DNA from: Symbiobacteriaceae bacterium
GTDB taxonomy: Bacteria; Bacillota; Sulfobacillia; Symbiobacteriales; Symbiobacteriaceae
Assembly (NCBI GenBank): GCA_029239785.1
Contig: JARBUG010000010.1
Coordinates: forward strand, 287-64,286
Length of the DNA: 64,000 bases
Direction: 5' to 3'
A program made the translations under genes and the position numbers. This document shows positions 6,511-31,253 of this stretch, in pieces. Below the pieces are notes generated by a model. The model saw only the letters and a program-made list of their open reading frames with translations, searched no databases and was not told where the DNA came from. How positions within the stretch are numbered: position 1 is the stretch's first letter; each line of letters starts with the position of its first letter.

Positions 6511-7065
6511 GTGGCTCAGAAAGGCTTTTACTTTGACATGACCGCCTGTGTCGGTTGCAAAACCTGTCAGATCGCCTGTAAGGACAAGAACGACAACCCG
6601 ATCGGCGTCAACTTCCGGCAGGTCCACACCTTCGAGGGCGGCAAGTTCCCGAAGCCCTGGATCTACTTCCTCTCCGTCGCCTGCAACCACTGCGAAAATC
6701 CGCGGTGCGTCCAGAACTGCCCCACCGGTGCCACCACCAAGCGGGCGGAAGACGGTCTGGTTGTGATCGATCAGGATGCATGCATTGGCTGCCAGTACTG
6801 CGTCTGGTCCTGCCCTTACGGCGCCCGCCACTTCCTCGAGGAGAAGAACGTGGTTGGCAAGTGCAACGGCTGCGTGGATCTGACGGCTGCCGGCGGTATG
6901 CCCGCCTGCGTCGATGCCTGCGTCATGCGGGCGCTGGAGTTCGGCGATATCGAGGAACTGAAGGCGAAGCATCCGGGTGCGGTGCCGATGGTGGCCGGCC
7001 TGCCGGGCGCCGACCTGACCGGCCCGATGCTGCTGGTCACCCCCAAGCCGGAAGCCAAGAAGTAG
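6511..7065 (+). CDS. DmsB-type 4Fe-4S ferredoxin subunit
   Basis: GTG start after AAGGAGGTG. Four Cys clusters (CVGCKTCQIAC, CNHCENPRC, CIGCQYCVWSC, CNGC..CVDAC). Confidence 0.9.
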   Translation: MAQKGFYFDMTACVGCKTCQIACKDKNDNPIGVNFRQVHTFEGGKFPKPWIYFLSVACNHCENPRCVQNCPTGATTKRAEDGLVVIDQDACIGCQYCVWSCPYGARHFLEEKNVVGKCNGCVDLTAAGGMPACVDACVMRALEFGDIEELKAKHPGAVPMVAGLPGADLTGPMLLVTPKPEAKK

Positions 7066-25385: not shown

Positions 25386-26231
25386 CTATGACGTGGCCAG
25401 CCGGGGCGCCGCCACCATCCGGCCCAGTTCCTGGGACCGCTGGGTGGCCCGGGCGACAGCCCTGACCATCGCCTCCCGGAACCCGGCCTCGTTCAGCACC
25501 TGCAGGCCGGCCATGGTCGTGCCGCCCGGCGAGGTCACTTTCTGCCGGAGCTCGGCCGGGTCCTCGCCGGTCTCCACCAGGGTCCGGGCGGCGCCCAGCA
25601 GCGTCTGGACGGCCAGTTCCCGGGCGACCTGCTCAGAGAGACCCACGCCACGGCCGGCTTCAACCATCGCCTCGATCATCAGGTAAATGTAGGCCGGACC
25701 GCTGCCCGACAGGCCGGTGACAGCGTCGAGCTGGGCCTCGGGCACCTCGACCACCCGGCCCACGGCGCCCAGAATCGCCCGTGCCACCAGGCGGGCCTCC
25801 TCGCCGGCGCCTTCGCCCAGGCAAATCGCCGTGGCCGACTCACCCACCTGGCATGAGGTATTCGGCATCGCCCGGACTACCCTGACGCCCGGGGCCACGC
25901 CATCGGCCAGAAGCGACGTGCTCACGCCCGCCGCCACCGAGAGCAGGACCTGCCCCCGGGAGGTGTAGGGCCGAATCTCAGCGAGCAGGTCGGCCACATC
26001 CTTCGGCTTGCAGAGCACCACCAGGACATCCGCCTCGGCCACCAGCGTCGCCTTGCTGGCGGCGGTCCGCACGCCATAGCGCATCTGAAGGGTCTCCAGG
26101 CGCTCCCGGTTGGAGCGGTTCGTGACGATCATCTGCTGAGGTCGCACAACACCGCCTTGAATCAGCCCGCGCATGAGCGCCTCGGCCATGGAGCCTGCCC
26201 CCAGGAAACCGATCGTCTTACCGTGAAGCAT
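25386..26231 (-). CDS. proC: Pyrroline-5-carboxylate reductase
   Basis: ATG 26231 after GGGAGGGAA. GFLGAGSMAEAL dinucleotide motif and VTSPGGTT. Confidence 0.9.
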   Translation of the reverse strand: MLHGKTIGFLGAGSMAEALMRGLIQGGVVRPQQMIVTNRSNRERLETLQMRYGVRTAASKATLVAEADVLVVLCKPKDVADLLAEIRPYTSRGQVLLSVAAGVSTSLLADGVAPGVRVVRAMPNTSCQVGESATAICLGEGAGEEARLVARAILGAVGRVVEVPEAQLDAVTGLSGSGPAYIYLMIEAMVEAGRGVGLSEQVARELAVQTLLGAARTLVETGEDPAELRQKVTSPGGTTMAGLQVLNEAGFREAMVRAVARATQRSQELGRMVAAPRLATS

Positions 26232-26562
26232 CCTGATTCCCTCCCTTATCTTCGATCGCTCAACACAAAAAACCCTTCGCGCTTCCCCAAAGGGAAGGGC
26301 GAAGGGCTTAGCCTCCGTGGTACCACCTTCATTGGTCTTTCGGGATATGCCGAAAAGACCCACTCAGTAACCGGGTCCAACAACCCGGAGCCGCTGGTAA
26401 CGGGTAGCTAACCCGGCCGGCTCGTCGCCGGCGGCTCAGGGGTGGGTTCGGGCGTCAGGTCCGTTCCGGGCTCACAGCGCCGTGCGGTTTGCACGGGCCC
26501 GGACTCTCTGGCGGCTCTGGTCTGCCTTACTGTTCCCCATCATCGCTGATGTGCTGGTATTG
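26232..26562 (-). promoter_or_regulatory. T-box leader (probably Pro, CCU specifier)
   Basis: Stem I CAGCGAUGAUGGGGAACAGUAAGGC, CCAGAGAG box, GAACGGACCUGA loop and T-box AAUGAAGGUGGUACCACGGAG. Terminator 26271..26309 with UUUUUUGUG. Confidence 0.8.
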
Positions 26563-26698: not shown

Positions 26699-28369
26699 CT
26701 AATTGACCCGCAGCGCCCGAATCTGGCGGCTTAGCTCGACGAACTCGGCGTTCACCCGCTCCTTCTCCCCCTCGGGCGCCCGGGCCAGCTCATGCCCCAG
26801 GCAGGCCAGCCGCATTTCGAGCAAGATGCGCTGCGCCTGCCGATCCACGTCCCCCCCGCCCCGGGTGAACTCCTCGTACCCGCCCCCAAAGGCCGACAGC
26901 TTTCCGCCGTTCACGCTGATCACCCGGGTCGCCACCCGCCGCAGCAAATACCGGTCATGCGAAACCAACAGCAACGTGCCCGGGAAGGACTCCAGTGCCT
27001 CCTCCACCCGCTCGCGGGACGGCAAGTCCAGGCCGTTGGTCGGCTCATCGAGCACCAGCACGTCGGGCGCCGACAGCAGAATCTTCGCGAGCGCCAGCCG
27101 CACCCTCTCGCCGCCGCTCAGGACGGCGACCGGCTTCAGCACATCCTCACCCGAAAAGAGCAGGCACCCCAGAAGCGAGCGGGCATACGCCTGATCCATG
27201 GCCGAGTTGCCCGTGGCCTCGGTCAGCACGGAATTCGAAGGACCCAACGCCGAAAGCTCCTGCGCCAGATAGGCCACCCGCCGGGGCGAGCAGTAGAGCC
27301 GCCCCTCGGTAGGCGCCAGCTCCCCGAGCAGCAGTCGGAGCAGCGTCGTCTTGCCAGCGCCGTTCGGGCCGACGATCGCCACCTTCTCTCCGCGCTGCAC
27401 GTAGAAACCGGCGTGGCGGAAGAGCCAGCGGGCGCCGTCGTACGTGAAGCCCAGGTTCTCGGCCAGGACCAGATTCCGCCCACCGGCCTCGCCGCCGCCG
27501 TCAAGCCGCAGGTTAATCGATCGTGCCTCGCGCGGCCGATCAACCCGGAGCCGCTCAATTCGCTTCTCCATGTTCTTGACGCCCTTCCAGAGGTCGCGGG
27601 CAGCATCCTTGTTCATGCCGAGCTGCACCTTGCCTTCGGTACGGGGCGGCTTATCGTTATGCGCTTTCACCGCCCACTCCATCTGGCGGCGAATCGCCTC
27701 CTCCAGGCGTTTCTTCTCACGCACGTAGTTCCGGTACTCGCTTCTCGCCCGCTCCAGTTCCATCTGCTTTTGCCGGGCGTACGCCGAGTAATTGCCGGGA
27801 TACGCCCTGACCTGCCCCTGATCCATCTCTAAAATGCGGGTGGCAACCCGGTCCAGGAAGTAGCGGTCGTGGCTGACCACCAGTACCGTCCCCCGGTATG
27901 CGGAAAGGAGCGACTCCAGCCAGGCCAGACCGTCGGTGTCGAGGTGGTTGGTCGGTTCGTCGAGCAGGAGCAGATCGGCCCTTCCCGCCAGGGCCCGGGC
28001 CAGGGCGGCCCGGGTCTTCTGTCCGCCGCTCAGCCGCCCCGGCGTGCGGTTGAGCAGCGAACGGCTGATGCCGCACTTCGCCAGCAGCTCATCCGAAACA
28101 GCGCCCATCTGCTCGGCCAGCGGCACGTCGGGCGCCCAGGCACCGTCCTGGCTCAGGTAGGCCCGGGAAAGCCCGGGCGTCACCCAGGTCAAAGACCCGC
28201 CATCGGCGGTCATCTCGCCGGCGAGAATCTTCATGAACGTCGATTTGCCGCAGCCGTTGGCGCCGACGAGACCAACCCGCTCGCCACCGGCCAGGTGGAA
28301 CGTAACGCCGGTCAAGACCGGCATCCCCTGATACGCTTTGATCACTTGATTCGCTTGTAAGACCATCAT
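26699..28369 (-). CDS. ABC-F family ATPase (ribosome-protection/ARE-like)
   Basis: Two ABC cassettes (GANGCGKST/LSGGQKTR and GPNGAGKTT/LSGGERVR), a long charged inter-domain linker and no TMD. Confidence 0.9.
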   Translation of the reverse strand: MMVLQANQVIKAYQGMPVLTGVTFHLAGGERVGLVGANGCGKSTFMKILAGEMTADGGSLTWVTPGLSRAYLSQDGAWAPDVPLAEQMGAVSDELLAKCGISRSLLNRTPGRLSGGQKTRAALARALAGRADLLLLDEPTNHLDTDGLAWLESLLSAYRGTVLVVSHDRYFLDRVATRILEMDQGQVRAYPGNYSAYARQKQMELERARSEYRNYVREKKRLEEAIRRQMEWAVKAHNDKPPRTEGKVQLGMNKDAARDLWKGVKNMEKRIERLRVDRPREARSINLRLDGGGEAGGRNLVLAENLGFTYDGARWLFRHAGFYVQRGEKVAIVGPNGAGKTTLLRLLLGELAPTEGRLYCSPRRVAYLAQELSALGPSNSVLTEATGNSAMDQAYARSLLGCLLFSGEDVLKPVAVLSGGERVRLALAKILLSAPDVLVLDEPTNGLDLPSRERVEEALESFPGTLLLVSHDRYLLRRVATRVISVNGGKLSAFGGGYEEFTRGGGDVDRQAQRILLEMRLACLGHELARAPEGEKERVNAEFVELSRQIRALRVN

Positions 28370-28435
28370 AAAGGGCAGCAGCCTCCTCAGATTTCAAAAC
28401 GAGGTCGGCTGGCCCCGCCACCGGACGGGGGCACG

Positions 28436-28468
28436 CGAAAAGACCATGGGTCGGAATCCCCATGGTCT
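28436..28468 (-). terminator. Leader attenuator terminator of ABC-F gene 1
   Basis: AGACCAUGGGG-auuccg-ACCCAUGGUCU followed by UUUCG. The stem is conserved with 30441..30466. Confidence 0.6.
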
Positions 28469-28568
28469 GTCAGTGGCGTGCTTACAAATGCGCGCACCGC
28501 AGGCGGGACCGGCCTTTCTGGGGTGACGGGTACGCCAAAGAAACCGCGTACGGGTCACCGGTATCCAG

Positions 28569-28592
28569 TTAGAGCACGGTCGTCTTTTTCAT
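28569..28592 (-). CDS. 7-codon leader peptide MKKTTVL
   Basis: GGAGGU lies 9 nt before the ATG. Same length and position as the leader ORF of the paralog. Confidence 0.5.
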   Translation of the reverse strand: MKKTTVL

Positions 28593-28634
28593 TGCTGCGG
28601 TACCTCCGCCTTTGTGGCAACAATCTCTTTCATC

Positions 28635-28663
28635 ACTGTACGCAAATGGCCGGCTCCAGTCAA
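28635..28663 (-). promoter_or_regulatory. SigA-type promoter of ABC-F leader 1
   Basis: TTGACT, 17 nt spacer, TACAGT. Confidence 0.45.
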
Positions 28664-28686
28664 CCGGACGGAATGAGTTGATTCGT

Positions 28687-30387
28687 TCAATCCGATCGGC
28701 GGTTCTCTTTCAGTTGGCGCAGTTCACGGCTCACCGCGATGAACTCCTGGTCGAGCCGCTCCTTCTCCTCGGGCTTTGGCGCGATCAGCGCCGCCGACAA
28801 CTGGGCGAGGCGGTTCTCCAGCAGCAGCCGCCGCTCCTCGTCGGCCTGGCGGCCGGCATGCTGAGCGGCATCCGCCCGCCCGAGGAATGCTTCATACCCG
28901 CCGCTGAACGACGTGACCCGCGCGCCCTCCACATGCAGCACCTTCGAAGCCAGCTTCCGCAGCAAATACCGGTCGTGCGAGACCAGCAGCAGCGTGCCGG
29001 GGTAGCCTTCCAGCGCCTCTTCCACCCGCTCGCGGGACGCCAGGTCGAGGCCGTTGGTCGGCTCGTCGAGGACCAGCAGGTCGGGACCTGCCAGCAGAAT
29101 CTTCGCCAGCGTCAGCCGGATCTTCTCCCCGCCGCTAAGGACCGACACGGGCTTGAGCACCTGCTCCCGGGAAAAGAGCAGGCAGCCCAGCAGCGTGCGG
29201 ACGTAGGCCTGATCCATGGCCTTGTTGCCCCCCGTCACCTCGGTCAGGACGGTGTTTTCGGGGTTCAGGTGCTCCATCTCCTGGGCGAGATAGGCGACCC
29301 GCAGGGGCGAGCGGTAGAGCGTGCCTTCGGTCGGGGCCAGTTCGCCCAGAATCAGGCGGACCAGCGTCGACTTGCCGGAGCCGTTCGGCCCGATAATGGC
29401 CACCTTTTCGCCTCGCTGCACATAGAACCCGGCGTCACGGAAGATCCAGCGCTGGCCGTCATAGGTGAAGCCGAGGCGCTCGGCCAGGATCAGGTTGCGG
29501 GCGGCGCCGCCGGCATCATCCATGCGGATGTTGATCCGGGTCGCTTCCCGGGGCTTCTCGACCTTGATGCGCTCCAGGCGCTTCTCCATCGACTTGGCGA
29601 CCTGCATGTGCGCCTTGGCCAGGGCGCCCTGGTAGGGCCGCCAGTTGGGCGGCGCATCGTGCGGGGGCTTGAAGTTGACGTTAGCCTGCGCCCACGAAGT
29701 CTGGCGGCGAATCGCTTCTTCCAGGTGCTTCTTCTGCACCACGTACTGCCGGTACTCCTCCTGGGCCCGCTCCAGTTCCATCCGCTTCTGCTCGGCGTAG
29801 GCCGAGTAGTTGCCGGGGTACTCCTTCACCTTGCCGTTCTCCATCTCGATGATGCGGGTGGTGACACGGTCCAGGAAGTACCGGTCGTGGCTGACGACCA
29901 GCACGCTGCCCCGGTAGGAAGTGAGCAGTGACTCCAGCCAGGCCAGGCCCTCGGTGTCCAGGTGGTTGGTGGGCTCGTCGAGCAGGAGCACGTCCGGCGA
30001 GCGGTGGAGCGCACGGGCCAGGGCGGCCCGGGTCTTCTGGCCGCCGCTCAGGGCGCCGGGTTTGCGGGAGAGCATCTCCCGCGTGATGCCGCAGCGGGCG
30101 AGCAGGGCGTCGGGAATGGATTTGAGCTGCCGGCCCAGGGTCTGGCCCGGGTCGAAGGGCGCCTCCTGGCTCAGGTAGGCCCGGGAGAGGCCATCGGTCA
30201 CCCACCGGATGGACCCCGACCCGTGCGCCAGCTCGCCGGCGAGGATCTTCATGAGCGTTGATTTTCCGCACCCGTTGGTGCCCACGAGGCCGACCCGCTC
30301 ACCCCCGGCCACGTGAAACGTGACGCCGCCGAGCACGGGAGCGCCTTCATATTCCTTGATCAGATCACGTACTTGCAGAACCATCAT
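28687..30387 (-). CDS. ABC-F family ATPase (paralog, ARE-like)
   Basis: ATG 30387 (MMVLQVRDLIKEYEG). GTNGCGKST/LSGGQKTR and GPNGSGKST/LSGGEKIR. The track start at 30534 reads into the leader. Confidence 0.9.
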   Translation of the reverse strand: MMVLQVRDLIKEYEGAPVLGGVTFHVAGGERVGLVGTNGCGKSTLMKILAGELAHGSGSIRWVTDGLSRAYLSQEAPFDPGQTLGRQLKSIPDALLARCGITREMLSRKPGALSGGQKTRAALARALHRSPDVLLLDEPTNHLDTEGLAWLESLLTSYRGSVLVVSHDRYFLDRVTTRIIEMENGKVKEYPGNYSAYAEQKRMELERAQEEYRQYVVQKKHLEEAIRRQTSWAQANVNFKPPHDAPPNWRPYQGALAKAHMQVAKSMEKRLERIKVEKPREATRINIRMDDAGGAARNLILAERLGFTYDGQRWIFRDAGFYVQRGEKVAIIGPNGSGKSTLVRLILGELAPTEGTLYRSPLRVAYLAQEMEHLNPENTVLTEVTGGNKAMDQAYVRTLLGCLLFSREQVLKPVSVLSGGEKIRLTLAKILLAGPDLLVLDEPTNGLDLASRERVEEALEGYPGTLLLVSHDRYLLRKLASKVLHVEGARVTSFSGGYEAFLGRADAAQHAGRQADEERRLLLENRLAQLSAALIAPKPEEKERLDQEFIAVSRELRQLKENRRSD

Positions 30388-30435
30388 ACAGGGCAACGCC
30401 TCCGAGTTTGGGCTCTGCCCGCCTGCTTGACAGCA

Positions 30436-30466
30436 CAAAAAGACCATGGGCAAGTACCCATGGTCT
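30436..30466 (-). terminator. Leader attenuator terminator of ABC-F gene 2
   Basis: AGACCAUGGG-uacuug-CCCAUGGUCU followed by UUUUGUG. Confidence 0.65.
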
Positions 30467-30561
30467 GTTGGTTTGCGCGCTTGCAACCGTGCGCAACGCA
30501 GACGGGACCGGCCTAACTTGCGCGACGAACCCACTTCGGTAGGTGCCGTCGCCGTATACAG

Positions 30562-30585
30562 TTAGCGCGCGGTGTTGTTGATCAC
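30562..30585 (-). CDS. 7-codon leader peptide MINNTAR (GTG start)
   Basis: GGAGGU lies 8 nt before the GTG; 8 codons including the stop. Confidence 0.5.
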   Translation of the reverse strand: MINNTAR

Positions 30586-30608
30586 GTCTGCGTACCTCCG
30601 GCTTTGCC

Positions 30609-31253
30609 TCAAGATTTCACTTCATGATATGCCGCCGGGGCGTAGCCTGTCAACAGGGAGAGCGCCAGCACCAAGACCCAAAGCTCAAACCCGCCAATCG
30701 TCATCCGTTCGAAGATGCCGAAGTAGGGCGATTTCAGGGCCATGCCCGCCGTCGACATGCCGCCGGTGATGAAGACGAAGAGGGCGTTCCACACGGCGAA
30801 CCGGCGCAAATGCTGGAGCGGCAGGTAGCGCCGGGCGCCGGCCCCGGTCAGGAGCATCGTCAGGATGGTGAGAACGGCGGTGCCGAGGGCGAGGATCAGG
30901 TGAACGGTGCCGGCGGTGGTCGGGGCGCTGCCGATGGGGTCCTGCGGGAAGAAGTACATGAGCAGGCTCAGAATCGGTACGACGGTAAGCGCCAGGGCGG
31001 CCCCGACGAGGGTGCCGGGGCGGCGGGCGGCGGTGACCTCCCGGAGCAGGCCGGCGGCAAAGGCGAGGAGCAGGCAATTATAGAGGATGAAGCCGGGGTC
31101 GATCTTCCAGCGGAGCGGAGCGCCCGCCTCGACCAGTGAGCTGATGGCGTGGGCGACGTGGCTGTAGCCCGGGGTAATGGCGGCGCCATAGATGACGGTA
31201 ACGACGTAAGCGATGGGAGCCAGGATGCCGCAGGTCAGGTAAAGCTTGCGCAT
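30609..31253 (-). CDS. Polytopic membrane protein, DUF998-like
   Basis: 214 aa. AAAGGAGA RBS. The N-terminus ...AITPGYSHVAHAISSL resembles the DUF998 signature. Confidence 0.55.
   Translation of the reverse strand: MRKLYLTCGILAPIAYVVTVIYGAAITPGYSHVAHAISSLVEAGAPLRWKIDPGFILYNCLLLAFAAGLLREVTAARRPGTLVGAALALTVVPILSLLMYFFPQDPIGSAPTTAGTVHLILALGTAVLTILTMLLTGAGARRYLPLQHLRRFAVWNALFVFITGGMSTAGMALKSPYFGIFERMTIGGFELWVLVLALSLLTGYAPAAYHEVKS
30624..30653 (-). promoter_or_regulatory. SigA-type promoter of ABC-F leader 2
   Basis: TTGACA, 18 nt spacer, TATCAT, overlapping the 3' end of the upstream CDS. Confidence 0.45.

Follow-up and report, generated by a model that had tools for sequence, protein, structure and literature searches.

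Contig JARBUG010000010.1 of a Symbiobacteriaceae genome assembly (GCA_029239785.1; 5.5 Mb in 302 contigs) carries two adjacent genes for ABC-F proteins, here called genes A and B, each preceded by a leader of ∼220 nucleotides (nt). The locus raises the question of whether these are antibiotic resistance (ARE) ABC-Fs, induced when a leader senses stalled ribosomes, or housekeeping members of the same superfamily. The window analysed is the whole stretch of 64,000 nt from position 287 to position 64,286 of this contig (C247), forward strand. A sequence-only reading of the window had favored the first answer, and the comparative analysis described here makes it probable that A and B are tandem paralogues of a Symbiobacteriaceae-centred ARE-type clade, each switched by its own ribosome-sensing leader.

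The two genes are as follows:

26699-28369, minus strand: gene A, an ABC-F gene encoding 556 amino acids
28687-30387, minus strand: gene B, an ABC-F gene encoding 566 amino acids, with the start ATGATG and a protein beginning MMVLQVRD

The encoded proteins are 66% identical. Domain searches found two copies of ABC_tran (PF00005) in each protein, ABC_tran_Xtn (PF12848) in both (45 and 56 bits; cut-off 25.9), and no membrane domain or family in either A or B. Together with the coordinates, these searches bear out the earlier description of tandem ABC-F paralogues with two cassettes and no transmembrane domains. Walker A, signature, Walker B-Glu, and H-loop motifs, as read from the translation, are intact in both halves of both proteins: gene A encodes GANGCGKST, LSGGQ, LLLLDEPTNHLD, and VSHDR in its first half and GPNGAGKTT, LSGGE, VLVLDEPTNGLD, and VSHDR in its second, and gene B encodes equivalent motifs in both halves. 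A mechanical list of open reading frames (ORFs) had offered a GTG-started version of B with 615 amino acids; this version was rejected as an artefact because it crosses back over the leader terminator, and the conserved start is the ATGATG.

Phylogenetic placement among the ABC-F subfamilies, which the sequence-only reading had named as a check, was carried out with a maximum-likelihood tree. The proteins fall in a 15-member clade (support 100/100) that joins Vga(C), Msr(A), Msr(E), Lsa(E), and the pBMB171 abc-f of Bacillus thuringiensis (support 96/72). Outside that ARE grouping lie EttA and the genome's own paralogues on contigs C10 (Uup/EttA-like), C207 (PRK15064-like), C34 (housekeeping-like), and C273. 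Among solved structures, the best relative is VmlR2 (8BUU, deposited as ExpZ; 302 bits over residues 8-554), followed by VmlR (6HA8; 289 bits) and then VgaA-LC (7NHL), and in the PDB ranking these three stand above Uup, YbiT, MsrE, and EttA. By alignment, the linker between the cassettes is about as long as those of Vga(C) and Msr(E), reaches ∼35 residues beyond that of EttA, and exceeds that of the VgaL-like protein. Tree, structure ranking, and long linker all point to ARE-type rather than housekeeping proteins, as do the NCBIfam models of Vga, Msr, and CplR, which rank next after a generic one although their cut-offs are not reached. This is in line with what had been proposed from the sequence, and the position inside housekeeping clades that would have spoken against that reading was not seen in the tree.

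The leaders of the two genes were then resolved into the following elements, in which segments 1 to 4 are numbered from the 5′ end. For gene B:

30624-30653, minus strand: promoter B, TTGACA-18-TATCAT, sigma-70-like, 11/12 matches
30562-30607, minus strand: Shine-Dalgarno (SD) sequence and upstream open reading frame (uORF) of leader B (segment 1), with GGAGG at 30599-30595; also the 5′ strand of helix P1
30585-30562, minus strand: uORF B, GTG ATC AAC AAC ACC GCG CGC TAA, encoding MINNTAR
30522-30553, minus strand: local hairpin P2 of leader B, enclosed by P1
30494-30517, minus strand: conserved block of leader B (segment 2), GTTAGGCCGGTCCCGTCTGCGTTG, which pairs with the uORF region (P1) or with the post-terminator element
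30437-30466, minus strand: predicted intrinsic terminator of leader B, AGACCATGGGT / GCCCATGGTCT, followed by TTTT
30411-30426, minus strand: post-terminator element of leader B (segment 3), GCAGGCGGGCAGAGCC, complementary to the block and to the main SD region
30388-30403, minus strand: main SD of leader B through to the ATG (segment 4), with GGAGG at 30403-30399

And for gene A:

28635-28663, minus strand: promoter A, TTGACT-17-TACAGT, sigma-70-like
28569-28610, minus strand: SD and uORF of leader A (segment 1), with GGAGG at 28607-28603
28592-28569, minus strand: uORF A, ATG AAA AAG ACG ACC GTG CTC TAA, encoding MKKTTVL
28522-28559, minus strand: local hairpin P2 of leader A, GGTGACCCGTACGC...GCGTACCCGTCACC
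28495-28515, minus strand: conserved block of leader A (segment 2), AGGCCGGTCCCGCCTGCGGTG
28438-28468, minus strand: predicted intrinsic terminator of leader A, AGACCATGGGG / CCCATGGTCT, followed by TTT
28407-28419, minus strand: post-terminator element of leader A (segment 3), GGCGGGGCCAGCC, with 12/13 bases complementary to block A
28370-28390, minus strand: main SD of leader A through to the ATG at 28369 (segment 4), with GGAGG at 28386-28382

When aligned, leaders A and B have 78% column identity, and both fold more stably than their shuffled versions (z of -5.0 for leader A and -3.4 for leader B), which agrees with the earlier picture of paired leaders that each hold an SD, a short uORF, a conserved block, and a terminator. 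Two details of that picture had to be amended. The short ORF stands, but its length had been given as both seven and eight codons and is seven sense codons plus a stop. The terminator stem with its U-run likewise stands (10-11 base pairs, GC-rich), but it does not lie just before the SD; it is located ∼50-35 nt upstream of the main SD, from which it is separated by another conserved element, one that pairs with that SD. In the minimum-free-energy fold of leader A, the main SD is paired. Hairpin P2 of leader B varies in sequence and length among relatives. Neither leader matches an Rfam family, the sole hit at E ≤ 1 between positions 26000 and 31500 being a T-box at 26292-26552.

The distribution of this leader was followed in 15 Symbiobacteriaceae genomes, 12 of which carry the ABC-F in one or two copies, for a total of 17 copies. 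Ahead of every one of these 17 stand a promoter, GGAGGTA, and a seven-codon uORF (M-x-x-x-T-x-x, closed by TAA), along with the block, a terminator, and an anti-SD element. A search pattern made of the SD and uORF found exactly 17 matches in the 15 genomes, each ahead of this ABC-F, with none in the three family genomes that lack the gene, and a reversed control pattern found none in the 15. In a wider scan of 400 other genomes of the phylum, run with a narrower spacer (5-7 nt) that itself misses leader A, there was one match, upstream of an ABC-F 57% identical and with a CCGGTCCCG block; on sequence grounds, this is a true homologous module. Because of the strict linkage in these scans, leader and ABC-F can be regarded as one evolutionary unit that is rare outside the family. 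A probe made from an 18-nt block motif was set aside, as it gave mostly chance matches in GC-rich genomes and real relatives only at L119, L184, and L199.

The out-of-family module (L237, G361:C72, ∼6846-6883) belongs to a genome of lower GC content, from a different family of this phylum, and has the uORF MRMVTGN. There, ∼570 nt separate the SD/uORF match from the ABC-F, with extra sequence apparently inserted in the leader.

The leaders are of two types, I and II, distinguished by block sequence and pairing register. Protein groups match the leader types in a quick tree; a more careful tree places the type II genes in two groups whose union it does not resolve. In one genus, three genomes carry a type I and a type II gene on separate contigs; the tandem genes of the window are both of type I.

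Pairing statistics were taken from an alignment of the 17 leaders. In the structure assigned to the repressed state, the block pairs with the uORF region, the terminator hairpin is formed, and the SD region pairs with the post-terminator element. Standard pairs occupy 86% of the cells of this structure, compared with 28-45% for slid registers; eight pairs show double changes, and its covariation score was reached by 0/500 shuffles. The terminator is 98% paired and has three compensatory pairs across the leaders, including a C-G to U-A change that marks both window copies. Helix P1 shows compensatory differences between leader types I and II, as judged partly by eye. The post-terminator element and SD region are paired in 83% of cells, and at its main SD leader A carries a compensatory double change from the CCGCC/GGCGG of relatives to CAGCC/GGCTG. 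The block is also complementary to the post-terminator element, with 88% of cells paired. Duplex energies, with z values comparing the median energy against shuffled partners, were as follows:

uORF with block: -28 kcal/mol, z -4
block with post-terminator element: -33 kcal/mol, z -3.1
post-terminator element with SD: -19 kcal/mol, z -2
terminator hairpin: ∼-19 kcal/mol, a fold energy without shuffle comparison

Pairings 1:2, 2:3, and 3:4 are thus supported by both pair counts and duplex energies.

These pairings suggest the following mechanism. In the absence of a drug, a ribosome would translate the seven-codon uORF and depart, leaving segment 1 to pair with segment 2; the terminator hairpin would form and most transcripts would stop there, and in those that read through, segment 3 would mask the main SD (segment 4). 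In the presence of a drug, a ribosome stalled on the uORF would cover segment 1 and free the block, which might initially base-pair with the terminator 5′ arm, a candidate antiterminator, and would then capture segment 3, exposing the SD so that the ABC-F could be made. Within this scheme, we infer that the uORF is translated and that ribosomes stall on it, and likewise the antiterminator, the inducing drugs, and the resistance phenotype.

The four-segment logic of this scheme has been established by experiment for the leaders of vmlR (Takada et al. 2022, PMC9226507) and cplR (Obana et al. 2023, PMC10201436). In the vmlR leader, SL-1 is an anti-antiterminator that holds the uORF, SL-3 is the terminator, and SL-4 is an SD-sequestering hairpin; the induced conformation removes all of them, and it is proposed that a stalled ribosome releases the 3′ strand of the first helix and so relieves both blocks (PMC9226507). 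The leaders described here resemble that of Bacillus subtilis vmlR in belonging to an ARE ABC-F, in their length of ∼220 nt, in holding the SD and uORF in a helix, and in having a terminator and a separate SD-masking hairpin. They differ in that the vmlR uORF has three codons (MIN) rather than seven (M-x-x-x-T-x-x), in lacking detectable leader sequence similarity, and in serving proteins only ∼35% identical to VmlR. In Clostridioides difficile cplR, attenuation works jointly at the levels of transcription and translation and depends strictly on the uORF being translated (PMC10201436). The terminator hairpin of cplR itself hides the SD, whereas here the SD-masking helix is separate and the block pairs across the terminator; known uORFs of the cplR type are MK[L/Q] and MR[I/M], with three codons each in place of seven. 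Overall, comparative sequence evidence supports a predicted uORF/terminator/anti-SD device of the vmlR/cplR kind.

The numbering of segments also invites comparison with methyltransferase genes. Attenuation of the ermC type uses four segments that switch from 1:2 plus 3:4 to 2:3 and a leader peptide of 19 residues. The best-supported pairings here are the same 1:2, 2:3, and 3:4, but a terminator sits in the 2-3 loop, the gene encodes an ABC-F and not a methyltransferase, and the peptide has seven residues. A further account joins several of these features: the leader would work chiefly as a translational switch in the style of ermC, its 2:3 helix enclosing the terminator, which would only trim basal transcription without a dedicated antiterminator; the tandem copies would act against different antibiotic classes; and the ANN-rich seven-codon uORF, with its invariant Thr5, would sense stalls caused by context-specific elongation inhibitors, unlike the three-codon initiation-stall sensors of VmlR and CplR. 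As a combination, this account appears unlikely.

The uORF deserves separate attention. Among the copies it never varies in length, frame, start, or TAA and has no indels, and 18 copies keep the SD spacing, start codon, seven codons, and TAA in spite of ∼40% protein divergence. Selection on the peptide was considered and rejected, as mean entropy by codon position (0.41, 1.02, and 0.85) shows no third-position excess; because of this, and because the invariant ACC-G of the Thr5 codon is one strand of the helix with the block, peptide selection cannot be claimed. In codons 2-5, the first base is nearly always A. Of the 17 peptides, six start with MIN, like the vmlR uORF, and others with MKK, MRK, or MKN, which resemble variants of three-codon ARE uORFs; the homologue in the cultivable Symbiobacterium thermophilum probably has MKRTTAF; by this resemblance, the starts fit a stall at or just after initiation caused by drugs of the peptidyl-transferase centre. 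The missing third-position excess, along with the base pairing that constrains much of the uORF sequence, would also suit an untranslated uORF within a structured RNA that answers a metabolite, protein, or tRNA. Against it, 18/18 copies retain a strong SD at a fixed distance, the start codon, seven codons exactly, and TAA with no indel, the leaders match no Rfam family, and the design matches proven uORF attenuators (PMC9226507, PMC10201436); this explanation is judged very improbable.

A number of results count against the proposal of an ARE pair behind ribosome-sensing attenuators. Seventeen related sequences are few for covariation statistics, and conservation of the Thr5 codon may operate at the RNA level only, given that ACC lies in a helix. 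When nascent folds were computed with the ribosome footprint blocked, the block paired with the terminator 5′ arm region in most of the 17 leaders (CCC with GGG, GUCU with AGAC, and GGUG with CACC), in a register that is 81% paired; this register shows no covariation in the 17 leaders, and with an energy of -12.7 kcal/mol it does not outdo pairing with shuffled partners (z +0.2). It was therefore rejected as a proven antiterminator on the grounds that its energy equals that of shuffled partners. A mimic of the terminator 3′ arm in hairpin P2, strong in L211, L225, L213, and L226, was rejected as well, being absent from both window leaders. Because the candidate antiterminator has neither covariation nor an energy excess, regulated read-through of the terminator is proposed by analogy, and translational control may be the main regulated step. 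On the protein side, the references in the tree are named sequences from plasmid records, which include neither B. subtilis VmlR nor Sal, and the support of 96/72 at the joining node is moderate only. In NCBIfam, the next-best models after a generic one are Vga, Msr, and CplR, with bit scores for the two proteins of 388 and 398 (Vga_all; cut-off 725), 358 and 330 (Msr; cut-off 680), and 329 and 335 (CplR; cut-off 780); no cut-off of a named ARE family (Vga, Msr, Lsa, Sal, CplR, OptrA, or producer type) was reached, the remaining families scoring lower. The generic model, NF000355 (ribo_prot_ABC_F), was passed with 471 and 487 bits (cut-off 380), but housekeeping-like paralogues from the same genome on C34, C10, and C273 pass it too, with 479, 430, and 383 bits, as do proteins in 8/14 control genomes searched in six frames. 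NF000355 was therefore rejected as a test for AREs and its score not counted as evidence: annotation based on this model alone cannot separate ARE from non-ARE ABC-Fs.

The same scores bear on the view that A and B are not resistance proteins but ABC-F translation factors for difficult sequences or general stress, with leaders that sense slowed translation of any cause. Besides the unreached cut-offs of the named ARE families, it can draw on the commonness of physiological ABC-F paralogues (PMC12421871), on the induction of VmlR by general translation defects and (p)ppGpp (PMC9226507), and on the position of the ABC-F as a core, syntenic family gene beside T-box-proC and infC and not on a mobile element. 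However, the genome already has housekeeping-like ABC-Fs on C10, C207, and C34, the clade groups with long-linker AREs, and the leader design has so far been shown for drug-induced AREs (PMC9226507, PMC10201436, PMC12421871). A general translation-factor role is accordingly judged a minor possibility, and the ARE assignment of A and B is retained in what follows.

Why should one genome carry two such genes in tandem? The sequence-only reading took the different leader peptides as a sign of responses to two drug classes. The leaders lend that suggestion no support: both are of type I, there is no signature of selection in the codon positions, and MKK.. and MIN.. forms alternate among single-copy orthologues. 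Two-class sensing by the leaders is unsupported because both peptides fall within family variation. A difference between the copies is found instead in the proteins, in the tip of the linker, or antibiotic resistance domain (ARD), a 35-residue stretch at residues 232-266 of gene A:

A against B: 23% identity in the linker tip, 67% in the rest of the protein
A against its same-genus orthologue: 94% in the linker tip, 76% in the rest
B against other type I proteins: 43-57% in the linker tip, 60-67% in the rest

The tip of gene B resembles those of other type I family members and that of gene A is distinct, and from these identities it appears that one copy gained a new tip that is now conserved. 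Divergence at the tip hints at different specificities, and because these drug-facing tips have diverged, the two copies most likely differ in the range of drugs they are predicted to protect against.

The nearest precedent for such diverged copies is the ARE5 pair of Streptomyces coelicolor, TiaA and Are5sc, which have their own uORF attenuators (MVGDDDISG and MLV) and overlapping but distinct drug spectra and induction within one drug group (PMC12421871). As here, a single genome holds a pair of ARE paralogues that are each preceded by a separate uORF; unlike here, they belong to another ARE subfamily and phylum and are not adjacent, whereas A and B are in tandem, share a leader type, and differ mainly at the linker tip.

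The tandem arrangement recurs in a relative of the same genus, G001, so the duplication dates from no later than the origin of that genus. In that relative, copy B (L239, G001:C20, 3289-4147) is internally deleted, with residues 1-168 joined to ∼364-563, a fusion of the kind expected from recombination between the two ABC cassettes. Its leader is intact, with the uORF MINTTAH and a terminator, and the G001 orthologue of gene A is intact too.

Within the window, promoter B is embedded in the 3′ end (last codons) of a DUF998 membrane-protein gene at 30609-31253, and only 24 nt separate the gene B stop codon from the -35 element of promoter A. Because no terminator was found between that stop codon and promoter A, B transcripts can enter leader A, and transcription might read through from DUF998 into B and then A, with the two leaders as successive gates. 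On the 3′ side of gene A are a T-box leader, a pyrroline-5-carboxylate reductase (proC-like) gene, and then infC. In principle, the ABC-Fs could be signalling or self-protection components of an adjacent secondary-metabolite or regulator module, like LmrC in lincomycin producers, and roles of the LmrC type are known (PMC8546547, PMC12421871). No evidence was found that links an upstream module to the ABC-Fs. Since the upstream neighbors differ among relatives while the downstream T-box region is conserved, and no biosynthetic genes for a ribosome-targeting antibiotic were seen beside the pair, membership in such a module is improbable.

As predicted inducible ARE-type ABC-Fs with uORF attenuators, A and B form a real, well-conserved system that is ordinary in kind. 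No literature on ABC-Fs or on this leader family in Symbiobacteriaceae was found, and the predictions would extend attenuation of the vmlR/cplR style to high-GC, deep-branching Bacillota, covering Symbiobacteriaceae and at least one other family. Of modest interest are the block that acts as a hub for three partners, the seven-codon uORF, and the pair that differs mainly at the tip. The 18 leaders, with two pairing registers, form a natural set for studying how one hub sequence serves three partners, and the uORF offers a comparison with known ones of 3-4 codons. The tandem duplication is recent and has left essentially nothing but the drug-facing tip rewritten, which makes it a potential natural experiment on the evolution of ARE specificity. 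More broadly, environmental genomes hold predicted inducible ribosome-protection genes that curated resistance models leave unnamed.

Two further loci in this genome border on the subject. The first is the element downstream of gene A:

26292-26552, minus strand: T-box leader, 67.9 bits, E 1e-13, below the Rfam gathering score of 93

This T-box has a promoter-like site of its own at 26597-26569 and a terminator at 26294-26273. The proC-like ORF lies 3′ of it at 25386-26363 (minus strand); the GTG listed as its start, at 26363, overlaps the T-box terminator, so translation probably begins further downstream. The synteny is conserved, as T-box-like sequence also follows the ABC-F in relatives L218, L219, and L221.

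The second is a third ARE-like ABC-F (G000:C234:55914-57461, minus strand; locus L202; 649 amino acids), which groups with a VgaL/Lmo0919-like protein of Listeria (support 100/96). Its leader is short and different, with TATAAT, a 13-codon ORF MRRRYPLGRAPPL that overlaps a GC-rich hairpin, and then TCTTT, ∼30 nt before the SD.

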